Origin: a virus
Direction: 5' to 3' (one strand)
Length of the DNA: 10,168 bases
UHGV virus genome: UHGV-1558260
Part shown: in pieces, positions 6,910 through 7,625 of the stretch
Numbering within the stretch: the first letter of the stretch is position 1
Layout: every line of letters starts with the position of its first letter
The notes under the pieces: generated by a model
Database searches by the model: none
The model's input: only the letters and a program-made list of their open reading frames with translations
Told to the model about the DNA's origin: nothing
Made by a program: the position numbers and the translations under genes

Positions 6910-7625
6910 TCACCCAAACGTCTCTTCAGGCCACTGGCTAGCGATAACTTTACCCACAACGGAACAACTCTCATTGCATGGGATCATTGGGTACTGTGGG
7001 TTTAGTGGTTGTAAAAACACCTGACCGCTATCCCTGATCAGTTTCTTGAAGGTAAACTCGTCACCACCAAGTCTGGCTATGCAGAAATCACCTGGCTCAA
7101 CAGCCTGCTCAGGGTCAACAAGAATTAACATCCCGTCAGGAAAGCTTGGCTTGGATCCTGTTGGCGCGGTCATGGAATTACCTTCAACCTCAAGCCAGAA
7201 TGCAGAATCACTGGCTTTTTTGGTTGTGCTTACCCATCTCTCCGCATCACCTTTGGTAAAGGTTCTAAGCTCAGGCGAGAACATCCCGGCCTGAACATGA
7301 GAAAAAACAGGGTACTCATACTCACTTCTAAGTGACGGCTGCATACTAACCGCTTCATACATCTCGTAGATTTCTCTGGCGATTGAAGGGCTAAATTCTT
7401 CAACGCTAACGTTGAGAATTTTTGCAAGCAATGCGGCGTTATAAGCATTTTAATGCATTGATGCCATTAAATAAAGCACCAACGCCTGACTGCCCCATCC
7501 CCATCTTGTCTGCGACAGATTCCTGGGATAAGCCAAGTTCATTTTTCTTTTTTTTCATAAATAGCTTTAAGGCGACGTGCGTCCTCAAGCTGCTCTTGTG
7601 TTAATGGTTTCTTTTTTGCGCTCAT
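6910..7625 (-). pseudogene. cI: cI repressor (lambda-type), coding sequence split across three reading frames
   Basis: ATG at 7625-7623 gives [28 protein letters not shown] then TGA at 7541-7539. A second frame from about 7546 encodes [31 protein letters not shown] (the HTH region). A third frame from about 7449 to 6910 encodes [19 protein letters not shown]...QWPEETFG (track ORF 6910..7431). The shifts coincide with an A8 run (plus T8 at 7548-7555) and an A4 run (plus T4 at 7448-7451). Confidence 0.85.

Follow-up and report, generated by a model that had tools for sequence, protein, structure and literature searches.

Cryptic lambdoid prophages with inactivated repressor genes lack an intact repressor open reading frame (ORF), and in cryptic prophages substitutions, deletions or IS insertions are typically present as well, with lesions that are common to related strains. 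Wild imm-lambda phages (lambda, CL707, HK97, mEp234, HK544; GenBank EF120455-EF120461) form the live counterpart, and their operators oR1-3, promoters pRM and pR, and cro and cI genes match in sequence those of the DNA analysed here. Apparent gene loss can also arise during sequencing. When Ion Torrent data are assembled with SPAdes, homopolymer indels are frequent and cause frameshifts in the assembly; these indels do not recur when sequencing is repeated independently, and errors in runs of at least 3 bases had a mean run of 5.5 (PMC12046094).

The DNA studied here (hereafter the window) is the complete 10,168-nt sequence of virus genome UHGV-1558260. Exact look-up of a truncated helicase product and a 173-aa cI fragment encoded in it identified the window as one whole SPAdes-style metagenome contig, ena:ERZ504722:NODE_2104_length_10168_cov_3.275570. 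Compared with the wild imm-lambda phages, its cI gene as written is 716 nt long and lies in three frames. As in cryptic lambdoid prophages there is no intact repressor ORF, but here the other checked genes are intact and the lesions are confined to a single low-coverage contig; apart from a helicase gene that shows this error pattern too, at the contig end, no other sign of decay (private substitutions or other broken genes) was seen. The lesions take the same form as the errors of indel-prone sequencing in low-coverage SPAdes assemblies (PMC12046094), namely single-base run-length changes that give apparent frameshifts and pseudogenes. As with those errors, the indels of the window are absent from other assemblies, stand on a 3.3x contig and are clustered at the contig end; in contrast to the Ion Torrent errors, with their mean run of 5.5, most of them (four of six) affect runs of just 2-3 bases.

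The cI gene as written and after repair

The lambda-type cI repressor coding sequence is complete but interrupted. It occupies positions 6910..7625 on the minus strand, from an ATG start (7625-7623) to the native TGA stop (6912-6910), and its 716 nt compare with an expected 714. The cI DNA is a close match to the lambda record. Alignment with lambda, CL707 and a prophage of E. coli EC28 revealed two 1-nt insertions that spread the gene over three frames, and no other extra bases. The first insertion lies in a T8 run (7548..7555; A8 on the coding strand), which is T7 in all 108 of 108 aligned relatives and shifts the frame by +1 after codon 26. The other is a T4 run at 7448..7451 (coding-strand A4), which is T3 in 107/107 aligned relatives and gives a further +1 shift at codons 59-60 (..ALNAY..).

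Frame 0 reaches a premature TGA (7539..7541, minus strand) after 26 native and two aberrant codons (EK). The helix-turn-helix segment is found in the +1 frame, in a 49-aa ORF at 7439..7588 on the minus strand (Pfam HTH_3, E=3.4e-07) that terminates at a TAA (7441-7439). The rest of the gene is in the +2 frame, where a 173-aa ORF with a TTG start (6910..7431, minus strand; Peptidase_S24, E=3.2e-29) corresponds to cI residues 65-237, comprising the linker and the S24 self-cleavage/oligomerisation domain. It is this third-frame ORF that was called as the cI gene on the source contig. Both repressor domains are present, but not in one continuous frame as written.

The first-pass annotation of this DNA had described a complete lambda-type cI in three frames, and the alignments, ORFs and Pfam hits agree. 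It had ascribed this to two +1 shifts at homopolymer runs, which we recovered as T7 to T8 and T3 to T4 relative to the relatives; the lambda, CL707 and EC28 alignments leave exactly two extra bases in the window. Its statement that no full-length repressor is encoded as written was correct, given the stops at 7541-7539 and 7441-7439. The 26 native codons of the first frame were also counted correctly, but the TGA does not follow straight after the A8 run: the stop is codon 29 rather than 27, a small miscount.

Removal of the two bases produced a single 714-nt ORF of 237 aa, as had been predicted for runs of A7 and A3, and the HTH_3 match of the repaired protein improved to E=2.6e-11. The repaired protein is 100% identical to the annotated E. 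coli EC28 repressor WP_001274760.1, and the resemblance of the three-frame cI to a repressor is therefore not due to chance. This exact 237-aa protein is recorded on at least 1000 contigs. It differs by one residue from the CL707 cI, and by two residues from what we take to be the lambda cI protein sequence. Judged by its sequence, the repaired cI has accumulated no divergence from a common live allele.

The early region around cI

Operator positions were taken from the lambda and CL707 records. oR3 (7636-7652) and oR2 (7659-7675) are identical to those of lambda, and oR1 (7683-7699; TACCTCTAGCGGTGATA) has one G to A change at its central position relative to lambda. Since CL707 and E. coli EC28 carry the same change, it is an operator polymorphism that occurs naturally among wild imm-lambda phages. 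pRM and pR, which overlap oR1-oR3 (7636..7699), are all intact, and cro (7726..7926, plus strand) is intact and base-for-base that of lambda. The earlier claim of an intact pR/pRM region and cro was therefore sound.

Twelve other genes have lengths exactly as annotated in relatives: those for a Gp157-like protein, RecT, a 102-aa product, kil, cIII, a 322-aa product, N, a 301-aa product, cro, cII, a 53-aa product and an O-like protein. The contig is a mosaic, with cI, cro and oR of lambda type and non-lambda alleles of cII (8045-8323, 92 aa) and the O-like gene (8506-9327, 273 aa). At the megablast level, no one record, whether of an E. coli genome or a phage, spans more than 75% of it.

The 301-aa gene (5918-6823, minus strand), located downstream of cI, gave no Pfam match at E<=0.001 and was assigned by PADLOC to the BstA family of abortive-infection defence genes (E=1.3e-105); this family has been described previously (PMC8585504). 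Its EC28 homologue is named 'P63C domain-containing protein' in RefSeq. The gene sits in the slot of lambda rexA and rexB, and CL707 and E. coli EC28 share this layout. What underlies the contig is an ordinary imm-lambda early region in which a BstA-family gene takes the rexAB position.

Private indels in cI and the helicase gene

To search for the cI insertions in other genomes, we compared a 226-nt cI segment across both sites with complete E. coli genome records. A total of 619 records matched, 305 of them at >=99% identity, and the best identity of 99.1% corresponded to sequences identical to the query save for two gaps. Had a record carried either insertion, it would have headed the list at >=99.6% identity; none did, and neither insertion was found in any of the 619 records. 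Exact strings containing the A8 or the A4 run each gave 0 matches in IMG/VR, the GTDB species representative genomes and the JGI metagenomes, whereas the wild-type A7 string, scanned as a control, was found on at least 120 IMG/VR contigs.

The window was then aligned to about 120 related loci, and differences shared by no relative were scored as private. The region 6900-10168, to which 16 to >100 relatives align, has six private indels, all of them 1-nt length changes in same-base runs; the affected runs are 7, 3, 2, 2, 3 and 3 bases long in the relatives. Private substitutions numbered 0 in the same region, the well-sampled right third of the contig. The sequences flanking the indels are identical to common alleles and the SNP pattern does not switch around them; the remaining indels of the comparison are ordinary polymorphisms common to some relatives. 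The six private indels form two clusters, a pair in cI and a group of four in the helicase gene, and the probability that six uniformly placed events would fall in two windows of <=108 nt is about 3e-4. Five other 7-base runs in the contig are apparently of normal length, and the errors are therefore local rather than present in every long run.

The DnaB-like replicative helicase gene (9324..10168, plus strand) runs off the contig end. Its four private 1-nt indels are a deletion at 10013, a deletion at 10028, a G3 to G4 change at 10060-10063 and an A3 to A4 change at 10087-10090, each of them present against 26/26 aligned relatives. All four are packed into 78 nt at a distance of 80-155 nt from the contig end, and their net sum is zero. 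The first brings a TGA into frame, so that the ORF ends at 10022, and the shortened 232-aa product was found on this one contig only. Once repaired, the helicase has an open frame up to the contig end and is identical to intact helicases at 279/281 positions.

The mean k-mer coverage given in the contig name is 3.28x, a whole-contig mean rather than a per-position depth. From a mean of 3.3, a Poisson estimate puts the depth at one k-mer for about 12% of positions. A literature search on the sample and sequencing platform of ERZ504722 found no paper.

Origin of the indels

The two cI frameshifts are very probably homopolymer-length read errors kept in a very low-coverage metagenome contig, because the insertions are private, coverage is low, the contig end has a second cluster of the same kind and the indels come without private substitutions. 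In the phage or prophage itself, the imm-lambda cI gene is most likely normal, with 237 codons and with runs of A7 and A3 where the contig has A8 and A4. Thinly covered stretches of about read length may rest on one or two poor reads, and same-base runs miscounted in such reads would pass straight into the consensus; flow-based chemistry (Ion Torrent, 454) or any indel-prone read tails could be the source. Of the two explanations put forward in the first-pass annotation, homopolymer indel errors in the assembly are thus strongly supported by the 3.3x coverage, the private insertions, the four helicase indels and the 0 private substitutions. Some doubt remains on a verdict drawn from comparison and coverage. 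If the reads were Illumina, so many homopolymer indels (six in 3 kb) would be unusual despite a depth of only 3.3x, and the slip from A7 to A8, taken alone, is also plausible as a real mutation.

The other explanation, that of a prophage, decayed or cryptic, which has become independent of its own repressor, is not supported: there is no other decay, the repaired cI is a common live allele and indels outnumber substitutions 6:0. It is unlikely that the indels are real and that the window represents a defective imm-lambda prophage or dead phage genome that lost repressor and helicase by slippage, persisting since its lytic development is crippled or kept down by Cro. As written, neither a full-length cI nor a full-length helicase is encoded, the A7 run is a plausible slippage site, and damaged cI genes are known from public data (an in-frame GGG to TGA change in contig L126 and a C-terminal cI remnant in contigs L127 and L128). 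By analogy with classical lambda genetics, joint loss of a replication gene and the repressor could also let a repressor-less prophage survive. However, spontaneous mutation in E. coli yields indels roughly one-tenth as often as substitutions, and slippage does not concentrate in runs as short as 2-3 bases, so that six out of six private changes being indels, with four in short runs within 78 nt, is very improbable naturally. The ratio of six private indels to 0 private substitutions in 3.3 kb is unlike natural decay, and four zero-sum indels in 78 nt beside the contig end resemble one bad read and not evolution. No other gene is damaged (twelve are full-length), neither insertion is seen in other assemblies and the coverage is 3.3x; nor does the cI lesion look inherited, the insertions being absent from all relatives examined (619 E. 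coli records, 107-108 aligned loci). We consider it more improbable still that all six indels are real and mark an imm-lambda prophage which lost both repressor and replicative helicase purely by short-run slippage while keeping intact pR, pL, cro, N, kil and cIII. A Cro-dominated anti-immune state, or the immunity of a co-resident imm-lambda prophage, might for example allow such a prophage to survive.

Two further readings were rejected. The consensus could be a chimera of two co-occurring phage strains, the assembler path having made the indels; the sample is a metagenome, and imm-lambda phages are highly mosaic with many alleles. A chimera, however, joins existing alleles, and none of the six run lengths occurs in any relative; the bases around the indels also match common alleles and the SNP pattern stays the same across them, which makes this origin highly improbable. 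Runs of 8 or more A's can make RNA polymerase slip and ribosomes are prone to slipping on A-rich heptamers, and the A8 run is located exactly at the first cI shift. Real insertions might thus be bypassed by transcriptional slippage or ribosomal frameshifting on A8, which would restore the frame and allow some repressor to be made. The second shift is nevertheless at a 4-base run without known slippage capacity, so that the protein remains truncated: with the first frame restored, translation still ends at the TAA at 7441-7439. A recoding signal should moreover be conserved, but all homologues examined (619 E. coli records, 107-108 loci) are in frame with A7/A3, and recoding at A8 cannot account for the helicase indels. 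This bypass has next to no chance of being correct.

The main value of this case lies in quality control. Taken at face value, the contig would yield a false repressor-less lambdoid prophage with a truncated helicase, and the lesson is that very low-coverage contigs and private, clustered same-base-run frameshifts should be flagged before pseudogenes are called. If the lesions were true, the element would be a modest curiosity, a defective prophage.

The frameshifts are not common to other contigs with the same 173-aa ORF. L126 (Logan ERR14028565_174342), an independent contig, has normal A7 and A3 runs and carries a different lesion, a GGG to TGA change by two substitutions at cI codon 45 (about 3700-3720 in locus coordinates) that creates an in-frame opal stop and may be either a real nonsense mutation or an error; the gene caller output the same 173-aa C-terminal cI call for it. 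In L127 (ERZ761555 NODE_2095, 58x) and L128 (ERZ761547 NODE_4268, 110x), both of them metagenome contigs of good coverage, the upstream part of cI is replaced and the gene is present only from about codon 61. The first ~60 nt of both consist of unrelated DNA upstream of cI, with an in-frame stop, and the downstream genes differ, encoding 145 aa and 123 aa. In L127 and L128, cI may genuinely have been truncated to a remnant, or the contigs may span a mosaic junction.
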